A program made the position numbers and the translations under genes. Positions 25,885 to 47,500 of a stretch of DNA of 64,000 nt are shown in pieces. Location: IMG/VR virus record IMGVR_UViG_2834368228_000004, positions 96,001-160,000 of that record, one strand, 5' to 3'. Within the stretch, counting starts at the first letter, position 1, and the number at the start of each line of letters is the position of its first letter. This DNA is from a virus (lineage: Duplodnaviria > Caudoviricetes). A model generated the notes under the pieces. The model was not told the origin of the DNA and ran no database searches. It saw only the letters and a program-made list of their open reading frames with translations.

Positions 25885-25894
25885 TCAAAAAATG

Positions 25895-26837: not shown

Positions 26838-26838
26838 T

Positions 26839-27634: not shown

Positions 27635-27651
27635 TTCAAAGGAGAATTGAA

Positions 27652-28089
27652 ATGGAAGAAAATAATAATCAAGAAGTAGCCGTTGTAGAAGAAGCTGTAA
27701 AAGAGGAGGATGTAAAAACTGTCCTCACAGAACGTGGAGAAAAGTTTACAGAAGAAGAGTGGAAATCGCCAGTATTTAAAAATGGCCCAACTAGGGAACA
27801 AGTTGAAGCCTGGAAGGATAAATATGAAGATATATATTTCACACCATTTGATGGTGAAACATATATCTGGAGAACATTATATAGAGAAGAATACAGAGAA
27901 GTTGTTTCAAAAGCAGATATGACAGTATTTGATAAAGAGGAAACATTTACAGATCTTTGTGTATTATTTCCTTTAAATTATAGTAGTATCAGTGCTCGAC
28001 AAAAGAAAGCAGGTATTCCAACTACGTTGTTTTCAATGATTATGGATAAGTCTGGATTTGTCGCACAAACAGCTCCAATTAAGTTGTAA
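27652..28089 (+). CDS. Tail assembly chaperone-like protein
   Basis: AAAGGAG RBS before ATG 27652; acidic; WRTLYREEY...LCVLFP; position between tube genes and tape-measure-sized genes. Confidence 0.6.
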   Translation: MEENNNQEVAVVEEAVKEEDVKTVLTERGEKFTEEEWKSPVFKNGPTREQVEAWKDKYEDIYFTPFDGETYIWRTLYREEYREVVSKADMTVFDKEETFTDLCVLFPLNYSSISARQKKAGIPTTLFSMIMDKSGFVAQTAPIKL

Positions 28090-28104
28090 TTAGCAGGTGA
28101 TAAT

Positions 28105-28824: not shown

Positions 28825-31800
28825 GTGGGTGTTTCTGTGGAAGAAGTAAGAGTTGAAGATTATCAGAATAGAGAACATGACTATCGACGTTTTCTTGCTT
28901 CAGAAGCAGAACGTAATGAAATGCCATTTTATCAAAAATTAGGCCTTGGAGTTGCGGCTGCAGCTGGAGCATTAGCGGTAGGATATAGAACAGGTGCTAT
29001 GCGCCATATGGCAAGATATCTTGATGATGTTGTTGCACCAACCAGGCAGGCAGTACGTGAAGTCTCTTCAGAGGAATCACCAATACTGAAAAACTTAAGC
29101 TTGGATGGTTTAAGAGATCGTGGATTGAAGATACAAGACAGACGAAATGAATTAATGCAATTGCGTCAAGAACAATCAAACTTATTAGATCGTAGAGAGT
29201 TTGATATGGTTCGTTACCTTCGTCAACGAGATACGCTAATCAATAAGGACGTTCCTGAATATATCTCTGAAGGACTTCGTTTTCAGTCTGTGATGCGTGA
29301 TATTAGAAACTCACCTTCTATAAAAAGGGAAACTGCTAATCAGATTGAGAAAGGATTGGCATCAGGGTATACCGGCATCTTAAAACGTGGAAGTGCTTCC
29401 GATATCAATCACCTATTAAGACAGTCAGGTGTTCAAGATAAAGATGTTCTTGATGTTGTGCATGACGCTAGAAAGAATAACCGGGATCAAGACTTTTCTA
29501 GAAGATCTGAAGAAGGAAGAGCTTGGATTGAAAACGTTCAAGAAAAATTAAGGCAGTCAACAGCTCAAGACATTGAATCTATCACAAAGCAAAATAATCC
29601 AATTAAGCAGTCTCTTTTAGGTAAGAGTCAACGTCAAGCTACCATTCAAGACGTATTAGAGCTACATAAATCAAAACAAATTGTTTTAAATGAAGATGTA
29701 CTTGGTCAGATTAAAGATGTAACCAAACACAATAAAGGGTTTCAGGATGCAATTTTTGATAACAATCTATATGTCACATTGAAAGATGGAAAAGTATCAG
29801 GCTATGCTGATTATAAGGCATTTGATAATGTCGGAAGAAACACTATGGAGTGGTGGTCACATACGATGCCTGGTGGATTAATGCATTTTCGTGACATGAT
29901 TAATATGCGAACAGCTAGAGAGCAGTCAAGCTTCCGTATTTTTAAAAGAGGTAGTATTCAACCTATGTTGAATGCTCACATGAATATTAATCCAGGTGAA
30001 GCTCTGACAGAAGATGTAGTCTTTTCTGGTGGAAGATTCATGCGATTATTTGATGATAACGCAATTAATAGTAATCAACCGCTTGAAGTGTTAAATCCAA
30101 ATAGAGAGATGTATCTTACTTCTTCTCGATATGGTACTGTTTCCACAATCACTCGACAAGCAAGTGGTGTTATGACAGATGGTACCCGCAGTGTTATGGG
30201 AGTCGATGTAACGAATAATAGACTTTTTAAATCCTTGGATATAGGTGGTCAAGAGAAAGACCCAATTGCATCAGAAGGTTTTAGTGTTTTTAGTAAGTTC
30301 TTTGACCCGGAATGGGACAGAAATCGTATTAATAAGGCTTTATCTAAAGGTATTGATTCACCTGAAGAGTATCATTTCTTACAGAGATTTTTAGATGAAA
30401 ATACGATTGGACTATCACCTAGAGTATTAAATCAAATAGAATCACATTTACCACAGTCATTACAGACTGAAATTAAAGATATGGGAATTCATTTTGGACG
30501 AGACGAAGATATGCTTAAGCTATTTAAGCATCTTGGTGAAGGGAATTATCGGACAAGTTTTGAATTCAATCAATTGTATAGAAACTTTGATCGAAACCCG
30601 GAAGAAGTCTTAAATAGAACAATGCCCAGAGGAAGAACAAGTGTCATCTTAGGCGGCAGCATAGAAGTTAAAACAGGAATGGATCAAATCAATCAAGAGA
30701 TTGGTAAAGAATTGGTTCGCCAAATAGCACAGCATGAATCGATTACTTCAGGTGTCCCTGTTCGAGAAGCACAGCATACTTTACGTAACATATTGAAAGA
30801 CAAAAGTAGTGAAGGACTTTTAACAAAACCTGAATTTCAAAACGCTGAAAGATTAATAAATCAACAAATGTTTGAGCAAGCTGGAAAGAGTTTAAGAGGA
30901 AACTATGAGCACCTCATTAGTGAAACCAACCAATTATTGTTAGGCAAAGATAATATCAATCAAACATTCCAACAAGGACTAGATACTTTATCTAAACAAG
31001 TAAATCCATTGCTTCATAAAAGCACAAATGCAAACCATGTCAATCAAATTGCAGATGAATACGTAGCAGTTAATAAGTCAAATGTTTGGGATAACTTAAA
31101 AAGTATTGATGGAATTAGAGATTTAGGTAGACAATTAAGTTTACGTACTGGTTCTCGAAATATGGAAGACATGACTACATTATCTATCTTTGGATCTTAT
31201 TATCCAGCATATCGTTTACAAGAAGCTTTAGGCAGTCTTGGACTAGGTTTATCTGGAGCTTCTATGGGAAGTCCGTTGCAAATATGGAGCTCCTTGCTTT
31301 TAAAGCGTGGACTTCCGATTGTCGCAGGTGTTGAAGGTTATCAGTACGCTGACTATTTGATGGATGAATATACAGGAGCAGGATTTTCGGAAAGATGGGA
31401 AAACTATAAAGCTCATCAGCGGTTAGCTGATGCTGGTGCTAGGGAAGAATTCGATTCAATAGCTGACTTAGAAAGACAACGTATGCTGCGTCCTGGAATT
31501 GAACATTTTGAAGCAATGCCATCTATTCATTTACCTGGATTTGGTGAAGTAGGTCCTGGTGTTCTTCTTAATCAAATGATGGGAGCTGTAACTGGAATAT
31601 CTTCTCCATTATCTGATAAAGATACAATGACAGTAGAAGAGACATACGATGATATCCTCCATGGTACAGATGAGATTCGTAAAGGTCGATGGTGGGCAAT
31701 CGGGTCACGGACTGCTTATCGTGGAGACCGTATCATTGAATTTGCTCCTAATAGTTATAGGCAAGCCCACAGTGATTGGGAGTATACCAATGTTATTGGA

Positions 31801-34677
31801 AGCGGAGAAGAGCAGTATGCTCATTCCTTATTTCCAACGTTTGAAAACCCACTAGGAGCTCTTTCCTTTCTAATTGGAACTAGAGATCCTTACTGGTTTG
31901 AGAAAAAGCATTATTATGATCGGCCTTATCTTTTAACAGGTGATTTCTTCAATAGTAATACTCCTTTCATTGGAGATATTGGAAATATGACCATAGGACA
32001 GATTTTAAAGCCAACACGAGAAATGCATGGAGAGTACTGGGCTGAACCAGAAATCATTCAGGAAAGTGCTGATAGTTTAGGTGAACGGCCATCAAGACCA
32101 GTAACAACTCGTATTTCTCCTTCAGGTCGTGTTGAATATAATGTTGAAGCATCAATTCAAGACTATGGAGCGGAAGCACCTATTTATGTTGCCAGAAGAA
32201 GAATTGATTCAGAGACGAATGAAGAAACAGGCGACATGATTATTGGTGATTTGCAATCAGGAAAAACAATTTATCTTCCAAGTAGAATGAATGGTGCATA
32301 TGTTGACTTAGATAGTGCTTTTATTGCTTCTGAGCAAAACATGGAGCGAATGATTGAAACGAGTCCACAAGGGCTGTTTGCACCAACTTATGAGTACCAA
32401 AAAGAAGTAGATCGCAGGAAATTAGCAGAATTAAATGACCCTCGAAGTGCACAATGGAGAGCGCAAGAGATGGCAAGTAACTGGCTGGAGCCACACGGTG
32501 TATATAACTGGATTTTCATGGATGAGCTACTTGGAAGAGATCCTTATGCAGGAAAAGAAGTTATAGCAAAAGCAGACCAAGCTTATAATGCATCTAACGC
32601 TTTCTGGGACTCTGAATTAGGTTCTCTAGGAGGAAGTCTTTCAGAGATTGGCAGACGTTTCATACGAAGAGATAGCGGGCAATTAGAGCATTATAATCCC
32701 ATTCGAAATCAAATGCCTGACTGGTTACCAGGAGGAAATTATTTTATTAATTTCCAGACAGGTGATCCTTATTCTTTAATACCAAATGGAGTATATCGTT
32801 TACCAGGAGAAGCTTATGAAGCGATGAACCCATTACATCCTGATGAAACAGGAAGATATGGAGCTTTTGATAAGCTTAAGATACTGGCAGATGTTGCACC
32901 ATGGTCAGATGAATATCGTTTCTGGAAAGACTATGTAACAGAGTATGAAGATGACCCAGAAATAAGAAAGCAAGCAGCTGAAATTAAACGTCAAGTATCT
33001 CAACGGAATCGAAAATATGAATTCCATGACTATATGTACAAGGATGCAGAACTTGAAAAGGAAAAAGTAACAGTAACAAAATTTTTAGATGATTACACCT
33101 TCCTCGCCAAAGAATATGGCGACCAGCCTATTCGATTAGCGGGCATCGATGCTAGATCAAATGCTGAAGGTGTATTAGAGAAATACATCGATGTTGGTGA
33201 TCGCATCACTATTGGTGTTGATGCTGATGAGAATCATCGTATTTCTGACGACACTTATGGAACAATGAGAGCAGTTGTCTTTAAAGGAATAGAAAGCCTA
33301 AATAGGCAAATTATTGAACGAGGAGAAATGAAAGAATCTCAAACAGATTTCTCTGCCCCTGGTGTGTGGGCAAGGTTTACTCCAGAAGAAATTGCTGCAG
33401 GTGCAAGATGGGAAACAGTAGCTCACGCAGAAACAGCATTTAATACTAAGTTTTTACAAGTCAGAACCGCTCTAGAAGAATATGAAAGAGACCAAATTTA
33501 TTTGCAAGACTGGTCAACGTGGCAAAACTTTGGTGTCACTGACTATGCTATTCCTGCCGTTCAACGATTAGCTGGTCGTGACAATCCATTAATTGCAGGT
33601 GTTGCAGGCGCTGCATTTGGTGGAACCATTGGTAGAATCTTCTTAGGTGGGGGATCAAGAACCAAAGGTGGGGCACTTATTGGTGCGATTGGTGGAATTG
33701 GTGCCAATCTTTATGGAAAAGCTTATGAGTATTCAACTGGTGAAAGATGGATACCAGAGCGTAGGCGTATTGAACATGATATTAATGAGTATTTTGATGT
33801 ATTAGAGTATATGAAATACACAGGACTCTATGAAAAAGCTAAAGTTGAATTATCTCATATGGGATATGATGCTGAAGAGTTTTTAAATTATGTAGAAGAA
33901 AAAGAAGGAAAAACAAAGCAGCGTCGCAGTGAGCTTGAAGAAAGAAAACAAGAACTTTATCTTACTCAACCGAATGGATGGGAAGAAGAACGAAAAGAAA
34001 TTAATCGGGAGTTGGCTAAGCTAACAGAACAGTGGGATGAATTACAACTTCCAGAGCCAGTTGCTCAAGCATTATATTATAAAGAACAAGCAGAAACTAC
34101 GTTATATGCTATTGATCCGTTTGAAGATCGACTTAATATAATGCAGGCTTTACCATATAAAGATCGTTGGTTCTTTAATGATTTTGCAAATGCACGAACA
34201 AAAGATCGAGATGAGATTTTAGAGTTGATTCCTGAGAACCAACGAAGAATTTATCAAGCCCTGTGGGGAATGGAAACTGAGGAAAGAAAACCTTTATCAT
34301 ATTATGCAGAAAAGTATGCAATACCAGATGCAGATTGGGAAGGATGGAGTCCTCAATACTCATTAGAAGATATAAAGGTTCAAGTTGTTCAAGATAGCGG
34401 ATTAAACCTATCTGATTTTAACTTTTGGGAAGATGATGTAGAAGCATCTAAATATGCTCCTAGGTTGCCAGACTCATATGATACACCAAGGTTTGGAGGA
34501 TTTAAGCAAGTTGAAGATAGTATTAGACAAGTATTGGAAGGACAAGGGCTGCATGATGTTCAAGTGACTGTTCATCCAAATAACGGTTCTGAAACACATG
34601 CAAGAGTGAATTATCAAAAAGACCGAAGCCAAGAAATTGAAGATGAATTCCGTTACCATATGGATGACTATTTGTAG
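28825..34677 (+). CDS. Giant tape-measure/ejection-type protein with hydrophobic segments and a degenerate SNase-like domain
   Basis: 1950 aa; LGLGVAAAAGALAVG and Gly-rich hydrophobic hairpins; VTKFLDDYT...IRLAGIDA...DTYG...LNRQIIERG. Confidence 0.6.
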   Translation: MGVSVEEVRVEDYQNREHDYRRFLASEAERNEMPFYQKLGLGVAAAAGALAVGYRTGAMRHMARYLDDVVAPTRQAVREVSSEESPILKNLSLDGLRDRGLKIQDRRNELMQLRQEQSNLLDRREFDMVRYLRQRDTLINKDVPEYISEGLRFQSVMRDIRNSPSIKRETANQIEKGLASGYTGILKRGSASDINHLLRQSGVQDKDVLDVVHDARKNNRDQDFSRRSEEGRAWIENVQEKLRQSTAQDIESITKQNNPIKQSLLGKSQRQATIQDVLELHKSKQIVLNEDVLGQIKDVTKHNKGFQDAIFDNNLYVTLKDGKVSGYADYKAFDNVGRNTMEWWSHTMPGGLMHFRDMINMRTAREQSSFRIFKRGSIQPMLNAHMNINPGEALTEDVVFSGGRFMRLFDDNAINSNQPLEVLNPNREMYLTSSRYGTVSTITRQASGVMTDGTRSVMGVDVTNNRLFKSLDIGGQEKDPIASEGFSVFSKFFDPEWDRNRINKALSKGIDSPEEYHFLQRFLDENTIGLSPRVLNQIESHLPQSLQTEIKDMGIHFGRDEDMLKLFKHLGEGNYRTSFEFNQLYRNFDRNPEEVLNRTMPRGRTSVILGGSIEVKTGMDQINQEIGKELVRQIAQHESITSGVPVREAQHTLRNILKDKSSEGLLTKPEFQNAERLINQQMFEQAGKSLRGNYEHLISETNQLLLGKDNINQTFQQGLDTLSKQVNPLLHKSTNANHVNQIADEYVAVNKSNVWDNLKSIDGIRDLGRQLSLRTGSRNMEDMTTLSIFGSYYPAYRLQEALGSLGLGLSGASMGSPLQIWSSLLLKRGLPIVAGVEGYQYADYLMDEYTGAGFSERWENYKAHQRLADAGAREEFDSIADLERQRMLRPGIEHFEAMPSIHLPGFGEVGPGVLLNQMMGAVTGISSPLSDKDTMTVEETYDDILHGTDEIRKGRWWAIGSRTAYRGDRIIEFAPNSYRQAHSDWEYTNVIGSGEEQYAHSLFPTFENPLGALSFLIGTRDPYWFEKKHYYDRPYLLTGDFFNSNTPFIGDIGNMTIGQILKPTREMHGEYWAEPEIIQESADSLGERPSRPVTTRISPSGRVEYNVEASIQDYGAEAPIYVARRRIDSETNEETGDMIIGDLQSGKTIYLPSRMNGAYVDLDSAFIASEQNMERMIETSPQGLFAPTYEYQKEVDRRKLAELNDPRSAQWRAQEMASNWLEPHGVYNWIFMDELLGRDPYAGKEVIAKADQAYNASNAFWDSELGSLGGSLSEIGRRFIRRDSGQLEHYNPIRNQMPDWLPGGNYFINFQTGDPYSLIPNGVYRLPGEAYEAMNPLHPDETGRYGAFDKLKILADVAPWSDEYRFWKDYVTEYEDDPEIRKQAAEIKRQVSQRNRKYEFHDYMYKDAELEKEKVTVTKFLDDYTFLAKEYGDQPIRLAGIDARSNAEGVLEKYIDVGDRITIGVDADENHRISDDTYGTMRAVVFKGIESLNRQIIERGEMKESQTDFSAPGVWARFTPEEIAAGARWETVAHAETAFNTKFLQVRTALEEYERDQIYLQDWSTWQNFGVTDYAIPAVQRLAGRDNPLIAGVAGAAFGGTIGRIFLGGGSRTKGGALIGAIGGIGANLYGKAYEYSTGERWIPERRRIEHDINEYFDVLEYMKYTGLYEKAKVELSHMGYDAEEFLNYVEEKEGKTKQRRSELEERKQELYLTQPNGWEEERKEINRELAKLTEQWDELQLPEPVAQALYYKEQAETTLYAIDPFEDRLNIMQALPYKDRWFFNDFANARTKDRDEILELIPENQRRIYQALWGMETEERKPLSYYAEKYAIPDADWEGWSPQYSLEDIKVQVVQDSGLNLSDFNFWEDDVEASKYAPRLPDSYDTPRFGGFKQVEDSIRQVLEGQGLHDVQVTVHPNNGSETHARVNYQKDRSQEIEDEFRYHMDDYL

Positions 34678-34688: not shown

Positions 34689-37600
34689 ATGGATGAGATG
34701 AAAGAGAGATTAGAATCACTTGGATTAACATATTTGCCACCAGCTCAAGGTAATCAAGAGTTGGTGGCAATGTTCAACCCAGTTCAAAGAAGAGATTATT
34801 ACCATAATTATAACTATCAAGATAATGTGCAAAAAATGGCCCAAGTTGTGAATCAAAACAATAACAGTAAAGACATTTTTGACAACCAACAAACATATCG
34901 GTTGTTGAATAGTTCGCATAGTCGTATGGGGCAAGATCAAATGCGAAAATTTCAAGACTTCTCAACTGCAAATCAATTTTTCACATTTGATATTGAAACA
35001 CTTGGAAATGCTCTTCATGGTGATAACTTCAGCATTTCTGAAATTGCAGTACAAGGGTTCCAGCGAAATGGAAATAAATTTAAGCCATCTAACCAAAGCT
35101 TAACACTTGTTGGATCACCATCGCAGTCTGTACAAAATGATATGATTCAAGTTATCACTCAATTACGTCAGGATCCATATCAATTCAATAAGTTGGAAGA
35201 TTGGAAGAAGCGTACGCTTGTTGACTTAACAAGATATTCAACTCGAACCGATGGCGGAGTAACACCTGCTGTTTTTGAAAGTCAAAATGGCAATATGATT
35301 AACTTTGGTCATAACAGTTTAGCTAATACCTTCTTTAAAGATGAAAGAATGATTGCTTCAAGAGTTATTGAGAAGATGAGTAATGTGTTACAACATGCAG
35401 AGTCAGGTTTAGAAAATCTAAGCGAAAATAAATATGGATTAAACTCTAATCAAATGATTGATCAATTCAATAAATTTGTTCATCAAAACAATGATAGTTA
35501 TTTCATATCCTACAATGGAGATTCATTTGATATTCCAAAATTAAAGGCTTTTGGAGAGCAAGCAGGAAATAATCCTATGCTGACTCCCAATAAACATTTA
35601 GACTACTTTCGTGTTATTCAAACAACATTCCCTAATCCTTTAGATTTACATCGCTTATTAAATCAAGATGCAAGCAGACCTAGTACTGGGATGACAAAAC
35701 TACAAGCATTCCGCAGTACTTTAGGATACGATACGGAAGCAGCGCACAGTGCTACTCACGATATTGGGTTAGAAGGATTAGCTGGAGTTATACAAGAAAG
35801 TAATCCTCATATTCAAGATAGAATTCAAAATGGCAAAACAAGCATTGGAGATGGATTTAATTTTCAAACTGAAAAGTTTAGTTGGAATGATGCACCAGTA
35901 GAGAGAGGACAGACTTTATTTGCTTTGGGTGGAGTTCGAGCAAGAAGAGATGGCGAATTATCCTTTGCAGCAAAGTTTGATCCAGAAACAGGTGTGTACA
36001 ATCCGATTAATGATTCTTTTAATACAACTATCATTAATGCAAAAACATTCTATGATCTGGAAGGAATCGTTGATTTATCTGATGGAAATACGAATCGATA
36101 TGGATTAAAACTTTACGATCAGGATAGAGATTTACACAACTTTATTATTCGTGAAGGCGACAATGCATTACATGAGATTCAAGACTTTATGCAAAATCGT
36201 TTCTATAATTGGGATGGTTTAGATAAAGAAACACGTAGAAGAGTATCAGATGCTCGATTAACAGATAGTGCTAGACGGCAGTATGAACGATTGTTTAGTT
36301 TGGAGAAAGCAGGAACTGGAAGGACAGGTGGGTTTAATGCTGCTCAGCGAACGTATCAAAATGCAAAAGTTCTAGAAGAACGTCTTAGTGGAAAAGATAA
36401 AAACATACAAGGACCTGATTATCATGCGTTAAGGCAGAATCGTATCACTCATGAAAGTATGATGGAGCAGCTTCGTTCTGGATTCGACAGCTTATGGAAT
36501 CCTGAAACAAAGTCGTGGGTAAAAAATGAGAGAGAAATGGAAAACTTCTTCCGTATGGGAGAAAGACTTATTTCAGAACGGCCAGCCTTTGAACCTGCCC
36601 TAAAATATATTGAAAGTCATTTGTCTGAGCCGACACAAAGGGATTTAGCTTGGAATCTATATACAAAGAAAGTAAATGAAGCATTCCCTATGGCAAAAGA
36701 GACTATTCCTCTACAAGAATTTGAAAACCGAAGAGTTGGATATACAGACTTTAATACAAATACAAAACACTCTTTAGATATGAGTTCATGGAGCTCAACT
36801 GAGCAAAGCATAAGTCGATATGTTTACAGTAGAGATATAAGTCAAAATGGAGATTTAACGCCTGAATTGAGAGAAGATCGATACCGGGAGCGAATGAACC
36901 AATTTTTAAAAACATTACAAGGTAACGATGTTATAAATGAAAATACAGCTAACGAATTAATTAATATTAATAATCAAAGCGCTACAGTTAGAAATGCCAT
37001 TATCGAAGCAACAGACATTTTGCAAAGTAAGGTCTTTGACTTTGATAGCACTGTTCAACAAATATCACTTGGATATAATAATGCTATTCAGCAAATGGAT
37101 TTAGCAACAAATGAAATAATGTTCCAAGAAGCGGTCAAACAAGTTAGATCCATGAATCAGGTTCGAATCAACCCACAGCAAGTAACAGGTTCAAAAGTTG
37201 AATTCAGTCCAGAGGTAGAAAGAGCACTTCAGCGATTAGATCAATCTCGTTTAAGTGGATTGTCACCGAACAACAGACAAGCGTTAGAAAGTGTTTTGTC
37301 TAGTGTTGTAGGAAACAGCAAATTTAATCAACATCATGTTGCTTTAAGCATGGACCAGCAAACAGCTAATGCTAGAATTTCCATTTACAATCCATCAAAT
37401 AGTACAAGCGTGATTGACGCTATCAGCAGTGGACAGGAGCACCCCAATGCCCTAAGCATTAATGTTCCTTTAGTTGGAGAACATGGTGTACATCAAATTG
37501 GAAATAGACGTATTAACGCAAGAAGATACATGGATTATCAAGATGGCCAGTTTGTAGTAAGGTCTTCCACTCAACAGCTTGCAGATAATTATACTCGTAA

Positions 37601-40600
37601 TATGAACCGAATCTTAAGAGATTTTGATGAAGGGGATATCGAAGGTGCCAATAATCGTGCCAGAAGAGTTCTAAATGAAAGCTTAAGAAATCTTTCTGGA
37701 ATACAGAGAAACTTAACATCTAATGATAGCTTCAACATGAACAATAACCAATCTGACTTTTTCAAACAAGGAAATGTTGAAGTTGATACAGCAATGGTTA
37801 AAGATTTATATGCAAGAAACAGACTGACAAATGATGATTTTTATACAACAGCATTTGAAGGTGGAAGGTTAAGGCCAGATGTATCAGTAAATGATTTAAA
37901 GCCTGCCAAAGCATATGAAGTTTCATTAGCAGCTGGAGATTGGTTAAGAGATAACAATTTAAATCTCTTTGCAGGAACAAATAAAGGTGAACATGTATCT
38001 CAAATGATGTTTAACGAACTGGATATTCGAGAATTTCTACCTTATGGTCATTATACGTTCCAAGGTCGAGATAACTCTGTTCAGTTACAAAATGCTCATT
38101 TATTAAACGCTCAAGTGCAAGAAAACATCTTAAATAATACAGAAGGCTATGTGAGCTTTAATGAACTAGTTGCTACTAATAAACAACGAGAATGGGTTAA
38201 TCATTGGAGACAAACAAATCCTTCAGACGCAGCAGGAATGCAAATAAAAACAGCCTTCATTAACGATGGAACATTAATGGATCGAATAAACTCACTTTCT
38301 GAAACAGAAAAAGGTTTAGATCTTCTGCGAGAAGAGGGAATTATCAATGCAGATGGATCATGGAACCACACAAAAATCCCACGTATATATGAACAACAAG
38401 GATTGATTTCTCAGGACTTACAAGAGCAGGTTAAAGTAACAGAGCAGAAGATTTTATCTGAAACGGACGATGTAACACTATTTCGTAATTCAAGAAATGG
38501 AGATACTGTTCAACCGGGGCAGGCAATAGGATATGAAATGATTAATGGGTATCAAAGAGAGTTGCGATATCAAGGTCCTAACCCAGGTACCGTTATCCAG
38601 CAGAATGGTCGTGTAGGTGTTGCGTGGGAAGAAGATGCCTTCAAGTATATCGTTGAAGGGGAGAAAATGACAGATGTTCCTATCAGCAGACGTTTAATGT
38701 CCGCTATAACCGGTGATGATTCCGTCAGTATGATTCTTAACCCAAACATTAAAAAGCACCGTGACTATGGTATGTTCTTGTCAGGAAAAGCAAAAATATT
38801 AGCAGACTATGCGCATCAATTAAGTAATGATTTAGTTCAAGCTACAATAGATGCTCCTGTAACAGATAAAGCAAGCAGAAAAGCGTTAAGACGTATGGAG
38901 TTAGAGACTCAGTTTAACCGAACCATAAATCTCGCTTCAACAGTTGGTCTTCATTGGGATGCAAGTAGTAGGTCATTCATTCAAGAAGGAAACCCAAATA
39001 TACCAGCAAATAGTTTTGAAAATATATTTGAAGAGCTCGGTTTGGTGGATAGGGATGAGCAAGGAAATGTTCTCCGAAGAATCGACCAATCATCTTTAGG
39101 TGACGAACTTGCGATTCTTGAAGCAAGAGTAAGTAAAGTAAGTAATCACAGTAAAATGATAGATGAAACAGGCCGAATCGTTTTAGAAGTGGGTCATGAT
39201 AGAGATGGTAATATAACGAAGAAATACCGTCGTAATGATTTAGGACAGTTTGAGCATGGTGGAGTGAGCTGGGGTCATCGAGAAATGGGGGTCTTTAAAG
39301 ACCTAAATCTCACTGAAACCTATAATAAAGTATATGAAACGATGATGACTCAAGCTCAACAGAATAATAGATTAAATGAAACAAAGAGTATGATTGCAGC
39401 TGTTAGTGGAGCTGTCAATGAAAACCATACATTGGTTTCTGATGCTTCGACATTAAGTGTTGATGATTTTAGATCTCTTCCTGAAATTGATCGTGATACA
39501 AATACGTATCAACAGACTATTTTTGATCGAGACTACATTGAACGACTGCATGGTAATAATAATGCTCACGGATTTTGGTTGGAGCTCCCAGGTGTTCAGC
39601 AAACAAATGGCGACACAAGAAGAGTGACTGCAAACATAAATGGAAGCAGTGGGGAAAGACAAGCATTAAATCGAATTTTCATTCCATTTACTAACTTAGA
39701 AGGAGCTAATGGAGAAGTTCACTTAAGAGAGCTTCAACGTAGCATTGGTGACATTTACAGGAGAGCAGCAGATGTAATTGGCGCAGGTTCCATTGATGAA
39801 CGAGCACGCTCGATGGACGGTTTGCAGGGTGCTGTGGATCGATACTTTGATCAAACAGTAAAAGATATCACTTCTTCTAAAGGACAAACAGGGAGCAGTG
39901 TATTGAAAGCTAGCATGCCTTCATCTGGAAGCGGCCTGTTTAAATTATTAGATCCATCTGTATCAATGGCGCTTGAAGGTGAATTTACATTTATTTCACC
40001 AGATGATGCGAAGGCGCTAGGTGTTTATGATAAGTTAAAAACAATTGAGGAGCAGCGGGTAGCTGGAAAGAGTATAGATGATTTAATGGTGATGAATACT
40101 CGTTATCCAGTGTTCCATAGTGATGCTGTTCAGATTTCAAAATTGCGTGTAAGTGAAGACGCAAGAAAAGGAGAGTTTTTAACTACTTCTTGGCAATCTG
40201 ATTTAATGAAGGCTGACTCCGATGGTGACTATAACAACATTGTTGTCTTAGATGATGATAACATCCAAAAAGAGTGGAGAAGACAATATAATTTACAAGA
40301 ACAAAATCGAGAACAAGCATATCTGGAACAGCTAGGAGATTCTGCTAGAAGCGGACGAGGATTTAATGCAGAGTATGTGCTTGGAGATAATGATGCATTT
40401 CGTCCTTTTGATCCAAATACGCAAGAGGAAATGGCAGCGAAAATTGGTAAACGGGTAGTTGGTTCTGCATCTAACTTAAACTTATATATGAGACAAGTTG
40501 CTGACCAATATCTAAATCATGGTTCAGAAGAGCGCAGAGCTATTTACGAAATGGGTCAGGATTTAGAGCAAAAGCTTATTTCTTCAAAACATGGATTAAC

Positions 40601-41492
40601 CGTAGAAGAGGGTCGTGCTCCTGCTATTGAAATGATTAATTCGGTATACAATAATAACTTCAGTGAAGCCAGAAAAATACAGCAAAAGTATTTTAAAGAA
40701 GACTTCAATTTAGAAATGATGGAAAAAGCTTTCTCTGGTTTAAGTAAAGCATATGAAAACCTAGACCAAGGCCTATATAATCCTTCACTAAAGTTTGGTA
40801 CATCACGAGGATTGAACACAGATGTCGGATTAAAAAATATCCATGACTTACTTCAAGGAGAAGCGGCCATGCATGAGACTGTTCAAACGAACAGCACATT
40901 GCGAATGCTTCAAAACATTTTAGGAGTAGATAATCAGCAAACATTTACAGACATGGAAGGGAACTCTCATGTTCGAGTAGACCCATATGAATCCAGAAAC
41001 GCCCATATGCGTTCTGATCGATTAGGTGGCATGCAAGGAGCTATTCAGGAATATGGAGTAGATTTATCCGGCGGCTCTGAAGGATTTGGAAACAAGATTT
41101 CAGATTTGATGGATACTGTTAATAATAATCGAAACTTTAAGTGGGGAATTATTGGAGCGGGGCTTGCACTTGGAGCTCTGGGAGGATACAATATTCTTAG
41201 ACATAAAGATCCAATCGAGGCTCCACAAGATGAAATGCATTACACAGTTAACAACTCACCTGTTCAGCCAGCAATAGATATGAATCAAGGGAGCTATTCA
41301 GCAAATGCTGATATAAGTGTTAATGCACGAGGTGGATCTTTAAATGACAACGAATTGGCACATATGATAAATCAAGGAATGGTAGATTCACAAATGAATC
41401 CTAGCAATCCACGAATAACAATTAACACAACTGATAATACACAGCAGCTTAATCGTTTCTGGTATAGAGATAAGATTGAGGAGAATGTGTAA
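34689..41492 (+). CDS. Putative single-chain two-barrel DNA-dependent RNA polymerase (fused beta/beta'-like) with an N-terminal DEDDh exonuclease; probably virion-associated
   Basis: Exonuclease: FDIET, YNGDSFD, HSATHD. RNAP-like motifs in canonical order: K-x6-K, ILNPxxxxxR, GGVSWGHREM, SSKGQ, RYPVFH, ADSDGD, QKLISSKH. C-terminal hydrophobic segment. Confidence 0.8.
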   Translation: MDEMKERLESLGLTYLPPAQGNQELVAMFNPVQRRDYYHNYNYQDNVQKMAQVVNQNNNSKDIFDNQQTYRLLNSSHSRMGQDQMRKFQDFSTANQFFTFDIETLGNALHGDNFSISEIAVQGFQRNGNKFKPSNQSLTLVGSPSQSVQNDMIQVITQLRQDPYQFNKLEDWKKRTLVDLTRYSTRTDGGVTPAVFESQNGNMINFGHNSLANTFFKDERMIASRVIEKMSNVLQHAESGLENLSENKYGLNSNQMIDQFNKFVHQNNDSYFISYNGDSFDIPKLKAFGEQAGNNPMLTPNKHLDYFRVIQTTFPNPLDLHRLLNQDASRPSTGMTKLQAFRSTLGYDTEAAHSATHDIGLEGLAGVIQESNPHIQDRIQNGKTSIGDGFNFQTEKFSWNDAPVERGQTLFALGGVRARRDGELSFAAKFDPETGVYNPINDSFNTTIINAKTFYDLEGIVDLSDGNTNRYGLKLYDQDRDLHNFIIREGDNALHEIQDFMQNRFYNWDGLDKETRRRVSDARLTDSARRQYERLFSLEKAGTGRTGGFNAAQRTYQNAKVLEERLSGKDKNIQGPDYHALRQNRITHESMMEQLRSGFDSLWNPETKSWVKNEREMENFFRMGERLISERPAFEPALKYIESHLSEPTQRDLAWNLYTKKVNEAFPMAKETIPLQEFENRRVGYTDFNTNTKHSLDMSSWSSTEQSISRYVYSRDISQNGDLTPELREDRYRERMNQFLKTLQGNDVINENTANELININNQSATVRNAIIEATDILQSKVFDFDSTVQQISLGYNNAIQQMDLATNEIMFQEAVKQVRSMNQVRINPQQVTGSKVEFSPEVERALQRLDQSRLSGLSPNNRQALESVLSSVVGNSKFNQHHVALSMDQQTANARISIYNPSNSTSVIDAISSGQEHPNALSINVPLVGEHGVHQIGNRRINARRYMDYQDGQFVVRSSTQQLADNYTRNMNRILRDFDEGDIEGANNRARRVLNESLRNLSGIQRNLTSNDSFNMNNNQSDFFKQGNVEVDTAMVKDLYARNRLTNDDFYTTAFEGGRLRPDVSVNDLKPAKAYEVSLAAGDWLRDNNLNLFAGTNKGEHVSQMMFNELDIREFLPYGHYTFQGRDNSVQLQNAHLLNAQVQENILNNTEGYVSFNELVATNKQREWVNHWRQTNPSDAAGMQIKTAFINDGTLMDRINSLSETEKGLDLLREEGIINADGSWNHTKIPRIYEQQGLISQDLQEQVKVTEQKILSETDDVTLFRNSRNGDTVQPGQAIGYEMINGYQRELRYQGPNPGTVIQQNGRVGVAWEEDAFKYIVEGEKMTDVPISRRLMSAITGDDSVSMILNPNIKKHRDYGMFLSGKAKILADYAHQLSNDLVQATIDAPVTDKASRKALRRMELETQFNRTINLASTVGLHWDASSRSFIQEGNPNIPANSFENIFEELGLVDRDEQGNVLRRIDQSSLGDELAILEARVSKVSNHSKMIDETGRIVLEVGHDRDGNITKKYRRNDLGQFEHGGVSWGHREMGVFKDLNLTETYNKVYETMMTQAQQNNRLNETKSMIAAVSGAVNENHTLVSDASTLSVDDFRSLPEIDRDTNTYQQTIFDRDYIERLHGNNNAHGFWLELPGVQQTNGDTRRVTANINGSSGERQALNRIFIPFTNLEGANGEVHLRELQRSIGDIYRRAADVIGAGSIDERARSMDGLQGAVDRYFDQTVKDITSSKGQTGSSVLKASMPSSGSGLFKLLDPSVSMALEGEFTFISPDDAKALGVYDKLKTIEEQRVAGKSIDDLMVMNTRYPVFHSDAVQISKLRVSEDARKGEFLTTSWQSDLMKADSDGDYNNIVVLDDDNIQKEWRRQYNLQEQNREQAYLEQLGDSARSGRGFNAEYVLGDNDAFRPFDPNTQEEMAAKIGKRVVGSASNLNLYMRQVADQYLNHGSEERRAIYEMGQDLEQKLISSKHGLTVEEGRAPAIEMINSVYNNNFSEARKIQQKYFKEDFNLEMMEKAFSGLSKAYENLDQGLYNPSLKFGTSRGLNTDVGLKNIHDLLQGEAAMHETVQTNSTLRMLQNILGVDNQQTFTDMEGNSHVRVDPYESRNAHMRSDRLGGMQGAIQEYGVDLSGGSEGFGNKISDLMDTVNNNRNFKWGIIGAGLALGALGGYNILRHKDPIEAPQDEMHYTVNNSPVQPAIDMNQGSYSANADISVNARGGSLNDNELAHMINQGMVDSQMNPSNPRITINTTDNTQQLNRFWYRDKIEENV

Positions 41493-41504: not shown

Positions 41505-44500
41505 ATGGCTACAACATTAGCAGTTGATGACCGGGATTCCCGTTATGGGGTCCTCGGTGATCATTATATGCGTATTGGAGATACACAGTTTTATTTACCT
41601 CCAACAGATATAAAAGTACATCGAATGATGAAGAATCAAAAGGTTTCTGTAATGCGAGGGAAAAACAGCTTGCCGAAAGAGTCTGGCTATTTTGATCGAG
41701 TAATAACACTAACTATCTTCTTCCCAGATGTAAGGTCTATAAATGATGAGTTAAGACCTCTATTGGCACAAAGTAAAAAGTGCCCATTTTTACCAATAGA
41801 AAACACTTATTTAAATGATGCACATAAGGTAGAAGCAATTACAATACAGAATGTTACAGTGCAAACCACACCAGGTTTTCCTAATACATTGCAGGCAATT
41901 ATTCAATGTTATGCATTTGAACCAGCTGCGTACATATATGGTTCTACTGAAAAGACATTTGATGAGATGTTTCATTGGCCATTATTTAGATGGTATTATG
42001 GCAGGCATTTAAAAAAGGTAAAAGTTGTTGATCCTGTCTTCAAGCAATTGTTTGGCAGTAATTCAGATAAGCAATTAACTTACTTTGAGCCTGTAAGTGG
42101 AGAGGTGACAAACGATTTTCAGTTTCGTATTGTAGCTGAAGATGATTTGTTAGCAATACGTGAATGGAACAAAGAGAAGAAAGAGCTAATTAAGGCTTGG
42201 CAGGAAGATAAGAATGGGTCTAGCTTAGGTGATTTCTTCAAAAATGCTATCAGTTCAAAGAAAGATGGAGCTAAGCCTATAACGAAAAAAGGCAAAGAAC
42301 AACAGTTTAATGAAGAATATGATGAGTTATATTCAAAAGCAATGTATGAATATGATTTGCATTATGAAACTTGGGACTTAGGAAGAATGGAGCTAGAAGA
42401 CTTTAGCATAAGTTTTGAAAACTCTATTTCATCTTATCAATTGCAGATGCATCAATCTCCTGCACACCAATATTTAGGTTCTCAGGATACTGTAATTGTA
42501 GCACGATTTAAGACAGATGATATGGAGTCTGTTGCCAGTTTAGAAGATCTTATGAGAAGGACATCCTATCTGACACGTGAATACCACAAAGAAGTTTCAA
42601 ATGGTTTCCTTGAGATTGACCATCAATTAGCAAGGCTCTATGGAGTGAAAAGTGTTGTCATTGATGATGTAAGTATCAATACAATAGAAGGTATGCCAGG
42701 TGTGTATGACATTACATTGACCTTAATGGCTTATAATCGTGCTGAAAAGAAAATGCATGAAGTAAGTGCAATGACTTTGGGGTTAGACTGGGATGCAAGT
42801 GGTACTATTGTAAATCCATACTTACAAAATGCGATGGCAGGATTTAAGAAAATACACACGTCTATTGGAATACAGCAAAATGCAGAACAACAAGCTATTT
42901 ATAATGAACATGTTATTAATGCTTTTCGTGCGGCAGAACTTTATCCAGACTTAGAGCTTCCAACATATGATGAAGTAAGAGAAGCTGGATTTAGTTTAAT
43001 AAATAATAACAATGGAGTCTTTGTAGATCCAGACTTTTTTATAAAGTATGATAGTTTTCAAGACTATGCTCAGCTATTAAGCGAATCTATTGATTCAGGA
43101 AGCAGCGACATCAAAATGTATGATGCCACTGGAGGAACTGCTACGGTTACTAAAGGTGGATTAAAGCTTGATGAAGTTGCTGATAGAAAAGTAGAAGAAA
43201 TGAAGACTATTACAAAAAACAGTGTTCCGAATCTGGGTGTTTCTGAAAACGTCAATGCAAATCAAGATACTACAAATCGTTCTACCCTTGAGATGGAAGC
43301 CTTAATAAGAAAATCTGCACAGGTATATGAAATTCCTGAAATCTATCCAATAGCTTTTGCGAAAGCATTTGACTCCAAGTTAAGGCATTTTTATGAAGTG
43401 GGAGACAATCCTGAACTTGGTGGGATCTATAATAGTAGTGCTGGCTCTCCAATTTTTATGGGGTCCAATTTAAACCTTCTAGGTGGAGATAGATCTGCGG
43501 ATTATGCAGGTGTTATGCGTGTTTCCAATCAATATGGGGATGCTAAATTAATTAGTAAAAGCATAGAGTATAATGTTGATGTTGGAATGCGTTACATGAA
43601 GTACTATTGGGAAGTTGCAGGTTCCATGATGGAAGATGAGAGAATTAATACAGATCGCTTGCATCAAATGTTAGATATTCCTAATACGAGTTTAGACGAT
43701 AGCTACAAAGCGCAATTCATTCTTATGTCTGCTCTCTATTTGCAACATGACCGAGAAATTCTTGCAGTGATGAATAAAGGGCAAGAACCGAGAGCAAGTA
43801 TCCTTCGTATTTATGAGCACTTACTAGATGTATTGGATGGAACAGAAGCATGGGGATATGAAAAGTTGCAGAAAGAGTATGGGAAGCTAAAAGTGCAAGA
43901 TTACAAGGCCACCATCTATACCGTTGATGATGACAATCCAACTCTTAATATTAAGCAATCTGATATCGATATTGAAGATACAACAGAGTTAGAAAAAACA
44001 ATGATGCATGATATGCTTGAATATGACCGTAGAGGGAGACTTGTTAGGGCTTTCCCAACATTTTTTATGACATTTATTGATGAAGGACAATTTGTAGGAA
44101 GTGCAAAAATGTCAGACCAGTACTTTCACTACAGAGCAATTAGTGACATTACATACAATAATAGTCGGAAGCAAGCTTCCAGTACACTAGTGTGTGAATT
44201 AAGTAATGTATTCGGCTCCTTAAGTGATAGTGAGAAAGCACAAGATTTAACGCATACTTCATTTGGCGATATGTTCCTTGCATCAATTATGCCAGGCGCT
44301 GTTGCAAAAGCTCAAGAGAGAAGCAGACATCGAAATTCTAACTTCTATAAGAGTATTTATCTTCGTACAGGTGTTAGGGTTCACATGAGAATGGGATATG
44401 GAGCAAACGCTGCTGAACTGCCAACTATCATGAATGGAACTATAACAAGTCTTCAAAATAATGGAGCAACCATAACAATGATTGCTCAAGACGATGGAAT

Positions 44501-47500
44501 AGAGCTTACGAATAAATTAAATGCAATGATGGATATTGATCCACAAGATGAAACCAGTGGATTTTTAAGCTCCAAAAAAGAGCCAACGGAAATTATCGAT
44601 GAGCTATTAACTGACTCACGAGGATTATGGTCAAACATTTCTGCATCACTAAGCAACAAAGAATATCAAGATCATGCACTTGGTGTAATGCATTTCGGTG
44701 AAACTGGATTACCTCAAGGAATTGCAGACTTTAAAGATTTATTTACACTTGGAATTATGGAGAGCAGGGATCGGGCTGAAGTAAATATGAATGTTTATCA
44801 GACGACGGGGCTCCTTCATGAAGATCAAAGCAAATGGTACAACCGATTAAAGGATGGTCTTGGAATTGGAGAATCAGATGAGGTAAATATTAATATTAAC
44901 CTTTATGATAAGACGATATGGGATGTTCTAAACATTGGAGCATCAGTCGGGTCTGACATGATAACAGCGGTCCATCCATTTGGTTTAAGAAGTACTATCT
45001 TTTTAGGGAAACCATACTTCCCAATCACCTATGGATATAAAGTTGACTTAGAATCAGAAAAAGTTGTTGGTGAGAAAATCAAGTCGTTCAAACAACTGCA
45101 TTCTTACGATAGTTACACATCCATTATTAGTAATGGGATTAAAGCTACGGAAGACAATATGTATACTGTTGCAGTAGGGGCATATAACAATGAGGGTAAA
45201 CTGAATGTAACCCCACCAGTTTATGTAGATAGTAATATATGGCCAGAGAAACAAAAGACAGTAAATATTGATACAACATTGAATGCTAAAGGAGTAGCAG
45301 CGTTAGGGGCAGTTCCCTTTATTGGAGATATGTTAAATAAACCAGCTAAATGGTTCTTTGATGAAGGTGTTGCACTTAAAATAACTGCTGCAGGACTACG
45401 TGATTTTGTAAAAGATATGTATGATGGTTATTTGACGGTTCCTGGTGATCCCTCTGTGAAGCCTTACGACACAATGCTACTTCAAGACTTTTATACAGAT
45501 ATGGTTGGTCCCGCAGATATGAAGGAGATTATTCACGTTATGAATCACGATGTAGGATTCATAACAATGATAAAACCTGATGTAATTGCCTACAATGAAG
45601 ATCAAACTATTTTTAATACCATTGCACGAGCGATGACAGTTGTAGCTTATGCTGCCACTAGAATGATTGCCCACAATATTTTAAAAGCAAAAGGATATAC
45701 AGGTTCATTTCCTATTTTAAACGCAGTCTGGTCAAGCACAAAAGAAAAGATGGGTAAAGCTCATCGAACATTTAAAGGAACCGCTTCTAAGGTAACAAAT
45801 AGAATACCGCAGCTTGATATTGACCGATGGAAGAAAAATGGAACATTTGATAGTCTCTCTAAATCCTTTGGTAATGTTTCTAAGAAAGACTTAGAAGACC
45901 TGTTGAAGAAAGGGCAATTAAATGCATCTAAAACAATAAAAGATTTCAATAAGAAGTATCCTAACTTAAATAAAAAAGCAAGTACAGTTTTATTGAAGGG
46001 TGAAAAGGGAGCTAAGAAAGTTTTGAGTGGTGGAAAGGCTTTGGGATCTGTAGTTAAAGGAGCTTGGAAAGCAAAGCACGCTTTATTAGGACCTGCAGGT
46101 ATTGTAACTTTAGCAATAGAAAGTGTAGTTGTATCAGCTCTTAGCTCAACAGTTGGTGAGTTTACTGAAAGATTTTTAATGAATAGGCAAGCTGTAATTA
46201 TTGTTCCTCTGAAAAAAGATGGATTTGAGTTCACTGCAGGTATAAATGGAAATAAAGGTTCAGTCGAATCCATACCAGAAGATTTAACAAAGTTTTATGA
46301 ACATCTTCCTGGACCGCTTTTAGATATGTATATAAGTGCAGAAAGTGCAAACAGTGAAGATGCAGGAGCTAGATTATTTTCAATTCGAAGTGCTTCATCT
46401 CAAAAAACAGTTGATTTAAGCACCATTTTGAATGGACGGATATCTTCCAGTCATATGTATAAAGATAATGGACTTATTGAAGAGATGTATAAAACAGATG
46501 TAGCAGCAGCAGAGAAAGAGATTGCAGAGCGCTTAGAATATTTAGTTAGCATGACACAAGAAGCTCAAAATGTTCAATATACTCATCTTCAAGAAAAGGA
46601 TTTGAGTGCTCAAAGTATTTTCTCTAACTTCCTCAATCTGTTGTTTAAGGGCAGTGATACAGAGACCGAGCAGTGGGATGGTACAGGAAGTATTTCACTT
46701 AATGGTAAAGCTGTTAATCTATCAAAGTATTTTAATAAGCTTGGACCGATGATCGATAAAGAAACAGAAAGACAAGGTGTTCCCCAGTATGCGGAAATAT
46801 TAAAAGCAAAAACAATGCAAGAATCTGGTGGTAATTATGAACGATATCCAGATGTCATGCAGTCATCAGAAAGCTTAGGACTCCCTCGAAACTCTATCGG
46901 TTTAAGTCGAAGTTTAGAGCAAGGTGTAAAATACTTCATACAGATGATGAATTCAGCAGGTGGAGATGTCGCCCTAGCTATGCAAGCTTATAACTATGGT
47001 GGTGGATTTATCAACTATGTTAAAGAGCGTGGTGGAGCATGGACACAAGAATTAGCAAATGCTTTCTCTGACATGAAAGCAAGCCAATTGGGTTGGAAAA
47101 GATATGGAGATAAAAATTACATTAAAAATATCATGCGCTACTATGAATATCCAAAAGGTGGAACAGATGACGCACCATCCACAATCGGGTCAGAAGGAAG
47201 GTCAAAATATCGATTGAGTTTAAGTCAAGCTAAAAGTCAATTGATTGAAGCTAGAGAAGCTAATGATAGAAAGTTTAATGTTACATTAGTTGGATCAAGT
47301 ACAAGCTTGATGAGAAAAGGCACATTTGATTTATTAAATCAAATAGCTCAGGATTATAAAAAGTCTACAGGGAAAACAATTAATATTACAAGTGCTTATC
47401 GAGCAAATGATCCAAACTGGCATGGTACTGGATATGGGGTAGATATTGATACCCCCAATACAATGAGAAGACTTTCTGGAGGAAAGCTTGGATTTCCAAA

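Follow-up and report, generated by a model that had tools for sequence, protein, structure and literature searches.

A predicted single-chain two-barrel RNA polymerase on one chain with a DEDDh exonuclease at the tape-measure position of a contractile-tailed phage of Bacilli

Virion-delivered RNA polymerases (RNAPs) of the two-barrel type have so far been documented in crAss-like podoviruses, in jumbo phages of the phiKZ/AR9 type, where they are multisubunit enzymes, and in a single group of Thermus siphoviruses. Thermus phage P23-45 has a tape measure of 5,002 residues with an active virion RNAP at its N-terminus, and this enzyme transcribes the gene for a further RNAP (Chaban et al. 2024, PMC10770324). 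This protein, gp96, is flat and has no clamp, and its authors tie the flatness to tail passage (PMC10770324). Structures of this system are gp96 (PDB 8h2n) and gp62 of phage P74 (PDB 8f5m); the partner non-virion RNAP of P23-45 is gp64. In phi14:2, a crAss-like phage, gp66 (PDB 6vr4) is a virion-packaged protein of ~2,200 residues hiding a single-chain two-barrel RNAP with an Asp triad. Two-barrel RNAPs that are associated with the virion or the tape measure are therefore already a known concept (P23-45 gp96, PMC10770324; crAss phi14:2 gp66). Here, we describe a 2,267-codon gene at 34689..41492 (+) of a 64,000-nucleotide stretch of phage DNA (IMG/VR virus record IMGVR_UViG_2834368228_000004, positions 96,001 to 160,000; hereafter the window). 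Its product carries a predicted single-chain two-barrel RNAP and a predicted DEDDh exonuclease, and the gene lies at the tape-measure position of a long-tailed phage.

The open reading frame (ORF) list and the translation showed an ORF of 2,267 codons with no stop. It has an AGGA-type ribosome-binding site of its own upstream, and the next gene starts 12 nt past its stop with GGAGG ahead. An original prediction, made from the window sequence, had read the product as a fused beta+beta' polymerase. The translation confirmed the ORF and all motifs quoted there at their residues (Table 1), and also the spacing of 38 residues between R1805 and the first catalytic Asp, D1843. The motif set is that of beta/beta': PF..H....R, an ED-like motif, K..K, NP, G..E, NRxP, DxDGD and the trigger-loop His. 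The pattern RxP(25–60 aa)DxD[GA]D occurred a single time in the six-frame translation of the window. A full flap insert is unlikely, to judge from the spacing, because only ~84 residues separate the ED-like motif from the lysine pair.

The region of residues 1060–2100 was modelled with AlphaFold2, template-free and from a 28-sequence alignment. The model had a mean predicted local distance difference test score (pLDDT) of 86.6 and a predicted template modelling score (pTM) of 0.81. Foldseek against PDB gave at least 294 matches at E ≤1e-3, and the best 50 were all RNAP beta' or second-largest subunits. The exhaustive VIA-align comparison split the model into two halves: the N-terminal half resembled beta/Rpb2 (Z 12–15) and the C-terminal half beta'/Rpb1 (Z 9–10). 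For the beta-like half, the best matches came from jumbo-phage as well as cellular-type enzymes: phiKZ non-virion RNAP (nvRNAP; 7ogp_C, Z 15.0), plastid PEP (8qma_A, 14.6), X. oryzae beta (14.4), Pol I A135 (14.3) and AR9 nvRNAP (7s00_C, 13.9). For the beta'-like half, cellular enzymes were best, with Pol II Rpb1 (9.8), Pol I A190 (9.7), archaeal A' (9.4) and M. tuberculosis beta' (8.9). Single-chain enzymes matched over the whole model (RDR2, Z 8.8; QDE-1, 8.7; P74 gp62, 6.8; crAss phi14:2 gp66, 5.8; P23-45 gp96, 5.5). The Z values were well over the noise level quoted for the tool. By these comparisons, the polymerase core looks more like multisubunit-type beta than like the YonO/QDE-1 clade.

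Isolated double-psi beta-barrels (Cdc48-N and designed DPBB proteins) matched model residues 684–811, which is the DSDGD-bearing part. Long helices were present at model residues 853–909, the alignment to Rpb1 extended up to model residue 1016, and a clamp-like element was matched by 3qqc (Z 7.6). The reading as a fused polymerase is supported by the template-free model, Foldseek, VIA-align and the family-wide conservation of the motifs: residues ~1074–2077 would form a single-chain two-barrel RNAP core in which the beta-like half comes first and the beta'-like half second.

Conservation was counted over 113 homologues with a length of 1,600 aa or more, which represented 50%-identity clusters and were aligned to the family profile. 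R1805, P1807, D1843, D1845 and D1847 were each present in 113 of 113. The two lysines were near-invariant as well: K1319 was found in 98 of 104 aligned sequences, and position 1326 held K or R in 103 of 104. The two positions are separated by 7 residues, versus 8 in beta, and lie on adjacent strands of the model. R1127 was kept in 95 of 103 sequences and E1235 as E or D in 89 of 102. After the catalytic barrel, K1918, K1921 and G1925 were conserved, followed by E1960-Q-x-x-I-x-x-K-H, in which K1967 was present in 103 of 103 and H1968 was H or K in 93 of 103. In one motif, the original prediction had to be amended. The NP/KH segment is present, but N1351 (kept in 50 of ~100) and R1358 (variable) are not its conserved residues; the neighbours K1356 and H1357 are conserved instead. 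Judged from the sequences, the motif agreement is far above chance.

A word-indexed search found 28 full-length relatives with 21–98% identity and 2,226–2,683 aa, many of them on contigs of ~190–225 kb. The few named sources were Virgibacillus salexigens, the Bacillus cereus group, B. velezensis and Priestia megaterium. The 2,267-aa protein itself clustered with proteins of Bacilli metagenome-assembled genomes (MAGs) on contigs of 194–198 kb, which are named 'hypothetical protein'. The 28 relatives are named 'hypothetical' or 'ribonuclease H-like domain-containing' in the databases. Exhaustive comparison of the family profile with 1.84 billion cluster representatives gave 120 clusters at E ≤1e-3; nearly all were 2,100–3,300 aa long and were matched at residues ~1,000–2,200. 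When 50,697 phage records were searched by tblastn, only the N-terminal region (aa 68–734) was found, in Bacillus phages Edson and vB_BceM_WH1. The profile search then also revealed the polymerase region in gp095 of vB_BceM_WH1 (E 1.9e-14). This distant member has NRYP...ADHDGD and carries the deposited name 'virion structural protein'.

By profile, the closest stand-alone relatives were P0140 and P0131, two short fused beta-beta' enzymes from metagenomes (1,050–1,160 aa) with the same motif order. They were found at E ~1e-3 in the library search and with a probability of 93–94% by hhalign. Against P0140 (1,161 aa), the alignment covered 645 columns (probability 93%, E 2.6e-7) and placed DSDGD on DFDGD, RYP on RFP and YEQQ on FEDQ. 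P0140 passes the Pfam cut-off for RNA_pol_Rpb2_6 (28.5 bits) and narrowly misses that for RNA_pol_Rpb1_2 (24.6 vs 25.3 bits). With the N-terminal 300 aa of P0140 alone, hhalign was not significant, although the DIRxxxPYG motif did line up. Unlike the 2,267-aa protein, P0140 and P0131 are without the exonuclease, the central region and the C-terminal virion module, and they have the canonical motifs K..HGNKG, FED and DFDGD. Yeast killer-plasmid Orf6 is a comparison for short fused enzymes of this kind (PMC2919709). In a Pfam scan of the 28 members, RNA_pol_Rpb1_2 was the most frequent family (7 of 28), always below threshold and with a best E of 0.006. PF05183 was matched neither by the 2,267-aa protein nor within the families most matched by the 28 homologues, even at E ≤10.

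The N-terminal part was modelled separately (residues 1–1080, pLDDT 82.6). Residues 92–381 are predicted to be an intact DEDDh 3'-5' exonuclease of the DnaQ/RNase T type. Its motifs are ExoI FDIET (D101, E103), ExoII YNGDSFD (N276, D281) and ExoIII HSATHD (H353, D358). D101, E103, D281 and D358 were invariant in the 28-sequence alignment; H353 was nearly invariant there and invariant in a 25-sequence N-terminal alignment. VIA-align matched the domain best to Pol III epsilon (Z 14.6, root-mean-square deviation 2.5 over 167 aa, 19% identity), followed by the DinG exonuclease, 3'hExo, TREX1 and RNase T. Foldseek gave RNase T (target-normalised template modelling (TM) score 0.55–0.62) and ExoI, and the Pfam match of the region to RNase_H_2 was weak. 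For the central region, no match was found in Pfam or PHROG, and an ESM Atlas feature search with residues 385–1075 gave none. The result lists of fold searches with the 1–1080 model were filled by matches of the exonuclease domain.

Two elements follow the polymerase. The Gly-rich hydrophobic segment falls under a Kyte-Doolittle cut-off of 1.6 and is a possible membrane-inserting or tube-lining segment, going by its composition. The C-terminal tail, which ends in LNRFWYRDK in the family, is likely to be a module for virion assembly or attachment.

Table 1. Features of the 2,267-aa protein and of the surrounding late operon. Positions refer to the window; residues are those of the 2,267-aa protein.
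Feature	Residues	Position (nt)	Strand	Evidence or remark
Large terminase		1716-3500	+	
Capsid gene		9840-10925	+	
Sheath-like gene, 346 aa		20611-21651	+	
Tail sheath gene, 948 aa		22259..25105	+	phrog_16991 E 2e-186
Tail chaperone pair (27625-28089, 28105-28821)		27625..28821	+	both phrog_29362; syntenic with gp143/gp144 'tail chaperonin' of 0305phi8-36
First giant gene, 1,950 aa, gp145 orthologue		28825..34677	+	BLASTP 38% identity over 638 aa, E 1e-115; second segment E 7e-57
Whole gene, 2,267-aa multidomain protein		34689..41492	+	predicted exonuclease, central region, single-chain two-barrel RNAP, hydrophobic segment, conserved C-terminal tail
Predicted DEDDh (DnaQ/RNase T-type) 3'-5' exonuclease domain	92-381	34962..35831	+	motifs, AlphaFold2 model, fold matches
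Central region	382-1073	35832..37907	+	mixed alpha/beta domains, AlphaFold2 blocks mostly pLDDT 80-90
Beta/Rpb2-like half	1074-1560	37908..39368	+	model residues 15-501; R1127, E1235, K1319/K1326, NP..KH 1351-1357, GHRE 1529-1532
Motif LPYGHYTFQGR	1117-1127			translation
Motif YEQQG	1234-1238			translation
Motif FKYIVEGEK	1318-1326	38640-38666	+	lysine pair K1319/K1326
Motif MILNPNIKKHRDYG	1348-1361			translation
Motif GGVSWGHREM	1524-1533			translation
Beta'/Rpb1-like half	1573-2077	39405..40919	+	model residues 514-1018; carries NTRYPVFH and DSDGD
Double-psi barrel	~1743-1870	39915-40298	+	generic DPBB match at model residues 684-811, Z 6-8
Motif NTRYPVFH	1803-1810	40095-40118	+	
Motif DSDGD	1843-1847	40215-40229	+	ADSDGD = 1842-1847
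Motif KRVVGSASN, bridge-helix-like segment	1921-1929	40449-40475	+	
Motif EQKLISSKHG, trigger-loop-like segment	1960-1969	40566-40595	+	
Gly-rich hydrophobic segment (FKWGIIGAGLALGALGGYNIL)	2150-2170	41136..41198	+	sequence; family consensus GGGLALGGLxGYNIL
Conserved C-terminal tail (..DNTQQLNRFWYRDKIEENV)	2215-2267	41331..41489	+	weak hhalign match to gp146
Third giant gene, 2,060 aa, gp147 orthologue		41505..47687	+	phrog_20474 full length; Pfam Lysozyme_like aa 1747-1881; BLASTP E 2e-61

The window carries a long late operon of a tailed phage, whose genes share one orientation. After the terminase and capsid genes, it contains the sheath genes, tube paralogues, the chaperone pair, the three giant genes, and baseplate and fibre genes. 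The tail is contractile, since a sheath gene lies in the operon; the product of 22259..25105 has 29–30% identity to the sheaths of Moorella phage MTATph1 and Bacillus phage 0305phi8-36. Because of the sheath and the flanking genes, the phage is placed by sequence as a contractile-tailed relative of 0305phi8-36, with ~195 kb and of Bacilli. The 2,267-aa gene is the middle one of the three giant genes, with gaps of 11–12 nt on both sides. Its location between the tail chaperones and the hub orthologue, directly upstream of the hub, is that of a tape measure. The layout of three giant genes is kept in contigs of the B. cereus group and Virgibacillus and in vB_BceM_WH1. gp147 of 0305phi8-36 is a T4 gp27-like baseplate hub with cell-wall lytic domains (Hardies et al., PMC2147016).

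In 0305phi8-36, the positional counterpart of the gene is gp146 (2,537 aa), which lies between gp145 and gp147 and is annotated 'hypothetical tape measure protein'. The record annotation of that phage lists gp145 and gp146 as virion proteins by mass spectrometry. The original prediction had placed the gene at the tape-measure position of a contractile-tailed Bacillota phage, and the sheath, the chaperone pair, the three giant genes, the baseplate genes and the gp146 counterpart bear this out. Its expectation that annotation would read 'hypothetical' or tape measure likewise agrees with the names of the homologues and of gp146. The position held, yet the protein is not tape-like: both modelled halves are compact alpha/beta structures (pLDDT 83–87) and not long helices, and no tape-measure family was matched in Pfam or PHROG.

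The relation to gp146 is confined to the C-terminus. The two proteins share the slot between the gp145 and gp147 orthologues, a similar length, the homologous last ~50 residues and the hydrophobic segment before them; the rest of gp146 is unrelated and without the polymerase. When aligned by hhalign, only the last ~50 residues were matched, and weakly (probability 27.6%, E 6.5e-4). Hardies et al. could align gp146 with its BtI1/BwK1 counterparts, which they read as fast-diverging tape measures, over its last 60 residues only (PMC2147016). The 0305phi8-36 lineage appears to keep the slot and the C-terminal module and to exchange the body of the protein, because gp146 and the 2,267-aa family have only these last ~50 residues in common. 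The polymerase profile matched nothing in 0305phi8-36 or Moorella phage MTATph1, and RxP..DxDGD was absent from gp145, gp146 and gp147 of 0305phi8-36. At about residue 1,200, gp146 (locus L001:16624-24234) has YLDIETTGLS, which is like a DEDD ExoI motif and had no Pfam match. The slot protein may thus carry an exonuclease in both lineages.

A second polymerase was found in related phages. 0305phi8-36 encodes the YonO-like RNAP gp99 on its non-structural arm (PMC2147016, PMC2919709, PMC7824862). In three of the four complete IMG/VR relatives with the giant polymerase gene, there was a separate PF05183 (YonO-type) ORF of ~1,160 aa. These ORFs lay far from the tail module (records G004, G001 and G002), and the complete 206-kb relative G003 gave no match. 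There was no YonO-like gene within the 64-kb window. Between the family profile and the YonO-like ORF of the closest relative, hhalign gave a probability of 0.6% and aligned only the RxP..DxDGD core. Going by this alignment, the two polymerases are not close paralogues.

Compared with P23-45 gp96, the 2,267-aa protein also places a single-chain two-barrel RNAP with DxDGD inside a giant protein whose gene lies in the tape-measure locus of a phage with a very long tail, and it was also missed by ordinary sequence search. A second stand-alone two-barrel RNAP elsewhere in the genome, as gp64 in P23-45, is present in the related phages. The differences are considerable. There is no detectable sequence relation, and the Z values of 5.5 (gp96) and 6.8 (gp62) compare with 12–15 to multisubunit beta. 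Among the profile matches, most of which were not individually identified, no P23-45-type protein stood out. Bacillota serve as hosts, and the tail is of the contractile type. Within the chain, the polymerase occupies the C-terminal half, after the exonuclease, and is followed only by one Gly-rich hydrophobic segment and a short tail, versus the membrane and peptidase domains of the P23-45-type tape measure; the lytic domain is on the separate hub protein encoded by the next gene and not on the same chain. gp96 is flat and clamp-less, whereas a clamp-like element seems to be present in the model of the 2,267-aa protein. Moreover, the giant RNAP and the YonO-like RNAP of the relatives are apparently not paralogues, unlike the two enzymes of P23-45.

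Similar likenesses and differences hold for the other described enzymes. Like the 2,267-aa protein, phi14:2 gp66 is encoded beside other giant genes, but it is a podovirus capsid cargo of the QDE-1/YonO-like clade and has no exonuclease domain. YonO (SPbeta) and gp99 (0305phi8-36) are also two-barrel, single-chain enzymes of Bacillota phages, and such enzymes occur in the same phage lineage; these PF05183-type proteins are encoded on the non-structural arm, have ~1,160 aa and pass the Pfam RdRP model, which the 2,267-aa protein does not. Unlike in multisubunit RNAPs, both halves are on one chain, beta then beta', within a far larger protein, and the sequence is too diverged from cellular beta/beta' for Pfam or for hhalign against the E. 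coli subunits.

We propose, with a probability of roughly 70%, that the 2,267-aa protein is a large multidomain protein of the virion module, which combines an RNAP with an exonuclease and is packaged and delivered for early transcription. The conserved module at its C-terminus would serve to build it into the virion, most probably inside or next to the tail lumen, and it would be ejected before or along with the DNA into the cell, where it would refold. The RNAP would then transcribe the first-entering (pre-early) genes without the host RNAP. These may include the gene of the separate YonO-like polymerase, which would take over later. At this same location, the exonuclease would act on a 3' end. 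One possible task is transcript trimming or proofreading as a substitute for Gre/TFIIS-type factors; another is resection of the incoming DNA end to give a single-stranded template. The scheme parallels those of Thermus phage P23-45 and the crAss-like phages; we infer both the virion delivery and the activity.

Several observations weigh against this proposal. Its main weakness is that virion presence is transferred from gp146 by gene position and not by homology of the enzyme; DxDxD is absent from the whole of gp146, and the polymerase profile does not match it. The 'virion structural protein' label of WH1 gp095 may have been given by analogy alone. As modelled, the two halves form compact globular bodies and seem to include a clamp-like element, so passage through the tail tube would need unfolding. 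At the sequence level, single-protein searches of Pfam, PHROG and PDB gave nothing above threshold and only faint hints of a DEDD exonuclease, a PDB search with the family profile gave noise only, and hhalign found no significant relation between the profile and E. coli beta or beta' (probability <1%). The best beta' alignment, though insignificant, does land on NRAPTLH...NADFDGD. By the P0140 alignment, Q1236 sits on the universal Asp of beta (E. coli D814, Rpb2 D837), and only the adjacent Glu, E1235, is kept.

If the protein were mainly a tail tape measure or ejection protein, its polymerase-like region could be a structural relic without a catalytic role in infection. It does fill the tape-measure slot of 0305phi8-36 with a length (2,267 aa) near that of gp146 (2,537 aa), shares a C-terminal tail with gp146 by a weak match and has a hydrophobic segment near its end, and no other gene of the module has a recognised tape-measure domain in Pfam or PHROG. 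However, a relic would not hold RxP and three Asp in 113 of 113 clusters at 20–50% overall identity, plus the lysine pair and K-H, and the predicted halves are of compact mixed alpha/beta structure instead of long helices. As P23-45 has a tape measure and an active RNAP on one chain (PMC10770324), the two roles are also not exclusive, and we consider a mere relic quite unlikely. An active polymerase that is made late and stays intracellular, for late transcription or priming, with an incidental position in the tail operon, is also unlikely. Delivery of the members with the polymerase domain is argued from position and not from virion proteomics, and YonO and P23-45 gp64 are non-virion phage RNAPs. 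On the other side, the placement between chaperone and hub with gaps of 11–12 nt was kept in every relative examined, and the C-terminal module is common with the proven virion protein gp146, though by a weak match. The relatives own a separate stand-alone YonO-like polymerase for an intracellular role, and nearly all members are giant (2,100–3,300 aa), as expected of virion-borne enzymes.

The substrate of the two-barrel core could also be another one. Archaeal PolD is a two-barrel DNA polymerase, and the core might be similarly DNA polymerase- or primase-like with DnaQ-type proofreading, or RNA-templated as QDE-1 is. DEDDh exonucleases usually partner DNA polymerases, the best match of the exonuclease is Pol III epsilon, QDE-1 and RDR2 align over the whole model (Z 8.7–8.8), and sequence cannot tell the sugar or template specificity. 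Yet the strongest structure matches are subunits of DNA-dependent RNAPs (Z 12–15 and 9–10), the trigger-loop-like K-H-G motif and the NADFDGD-like motif are of RNAP type, and the nearest stand-alone relative, P0140, passes Pfam RNAP Rpb2_6. PolD was absent among the structural matches listed, which carries no weight as evidence. We regard another substrate as very unlikely and favour the packaged RNAP with its exonuclease.

In the viral structure library, the best match of the polymerase model was an unnamed protein segment (TM 0.53). This segment is possibly WH1 gp095, going by its accession series. A metagenomic 'minor tail protein' (TM 0.50) came next, then uncharacterised proteins of Acinetobacter phage ME3 and Microcystis phage MaMV-DC, with giant-virus RNAP subunits lower down. 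The same polymerase fold was seen in BFVD at Foldseek E values of 1e-8 to 1e-19 in vB_AbaM_ME3 (two proteins), MaMV-DC and the 'minor tail protein' of Siphoviridae sp. ctnpt50. By these model-based matches, hidden two-barrel polymerases may be commoner in tail modules than recognised.

Further observations concern the surrounding tail genes. A virion-protein gene divides the two sheath-like genes, as in 0305phi8-36 (ORF137/ORF139) and Moorella phage MTATph1. The small proteins at 25165-27600 and 51578-51985 match phrog_9206, which is labelled 'major head protein'. The syntenic genes of 0305phi8-36, ORF140/141, are annotated 'tail tube' and 'tail tube paralog', and a copy of the phrog_9206 domain is also present among the baseplate genes. 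The 'major head protein' label of phrog_9206 (PHROG, GenBank product) is probably wrong. The two chaperone candidates have a common domain (phrog_29362), which fits the published 'G/GT without frameshift' layout of gp143/gp144. In the fibre/receptor-binding region (50420-61696), the modules phrog_17517, 16348, 10667 and 38477 are repeated in four consecutive genes. In the B. cereus-group contig JAKUEG010000011.1 (L003:2783-9985), the gp145 orthologue is split into ORFs of 1,637 aa and 429 aa (2,019 aa in L002). Between the pieces lies a 277-aa ORF with a faint LAGLIDADG_3 match, and the split looks like an insertion of the homing-endonuclease, intron or intein type.

In the searchable literature, no description was found of the 2,267-aa protein family, its occurrence in contractile-tailed Bacillota phages, its closeness to the multisubunit clade or its fused DEDDh exonuclease. 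Literature searches on WH1 and KLEB27-3 did not find the family described, and the supplementary survey of Chaban et al. (PMC10770324) had no DSDGD entry and no 0305phi8-36 entry. The P23-45 precedent makes the concept less novel, but the novelty of the family itself is unaffected.

A more specific version of the proposal can be put forward as a tentative possibility. The protein might be a component in the tape-measure slot of the contractile tail and an enzyme pair at the same time, which would be stored unfolded or extended in the lumen, anchored at its C-terminus, expelled at contraction and refolded at the membrane. The exonuclease would prepare the DNA end or edit transcripts, and the beta/beta'-clade RNAP would start host-independent transcription that helps to draw in the ~195-kb genome. 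If true, the protein would be the first RNAP coupled to an exonuclease as well as the first to be delivered by a myovirus tail, and the 0305phi8-36 lineage would swap whole 'ejected enzyme' cassettes in the tape-measure slot.

The exit of ~2,300 residues of globular enzyme through a tail tube poses a mechanical puzzle. No precedent for a DEDDh exonuclease on an RNAP chain was found in the searchable literature, and the arrangement raises the question of proofreading versus template processing. The compact single-chain enzyme (~1,000 aa), structurally nearer to cellular beta/beta' than YonO or QDE-1, bears on the question of a minimal cellular-type RNAP core. The published reading of the BtI1/BwK1 counterparts of gp146 as diverged tape measures (PMC2147016) would be revised. 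If the packaged and delivered RNAP proposed here is real, the strategy of virion-delivered two-barrel polymerases would extend to long-tailed myoviruses of Bacillota (Bacillus, Virgibacillus, Priestia) and to gut and rumen Bacilli MAGs, with ~120 clusters at 50% identity.

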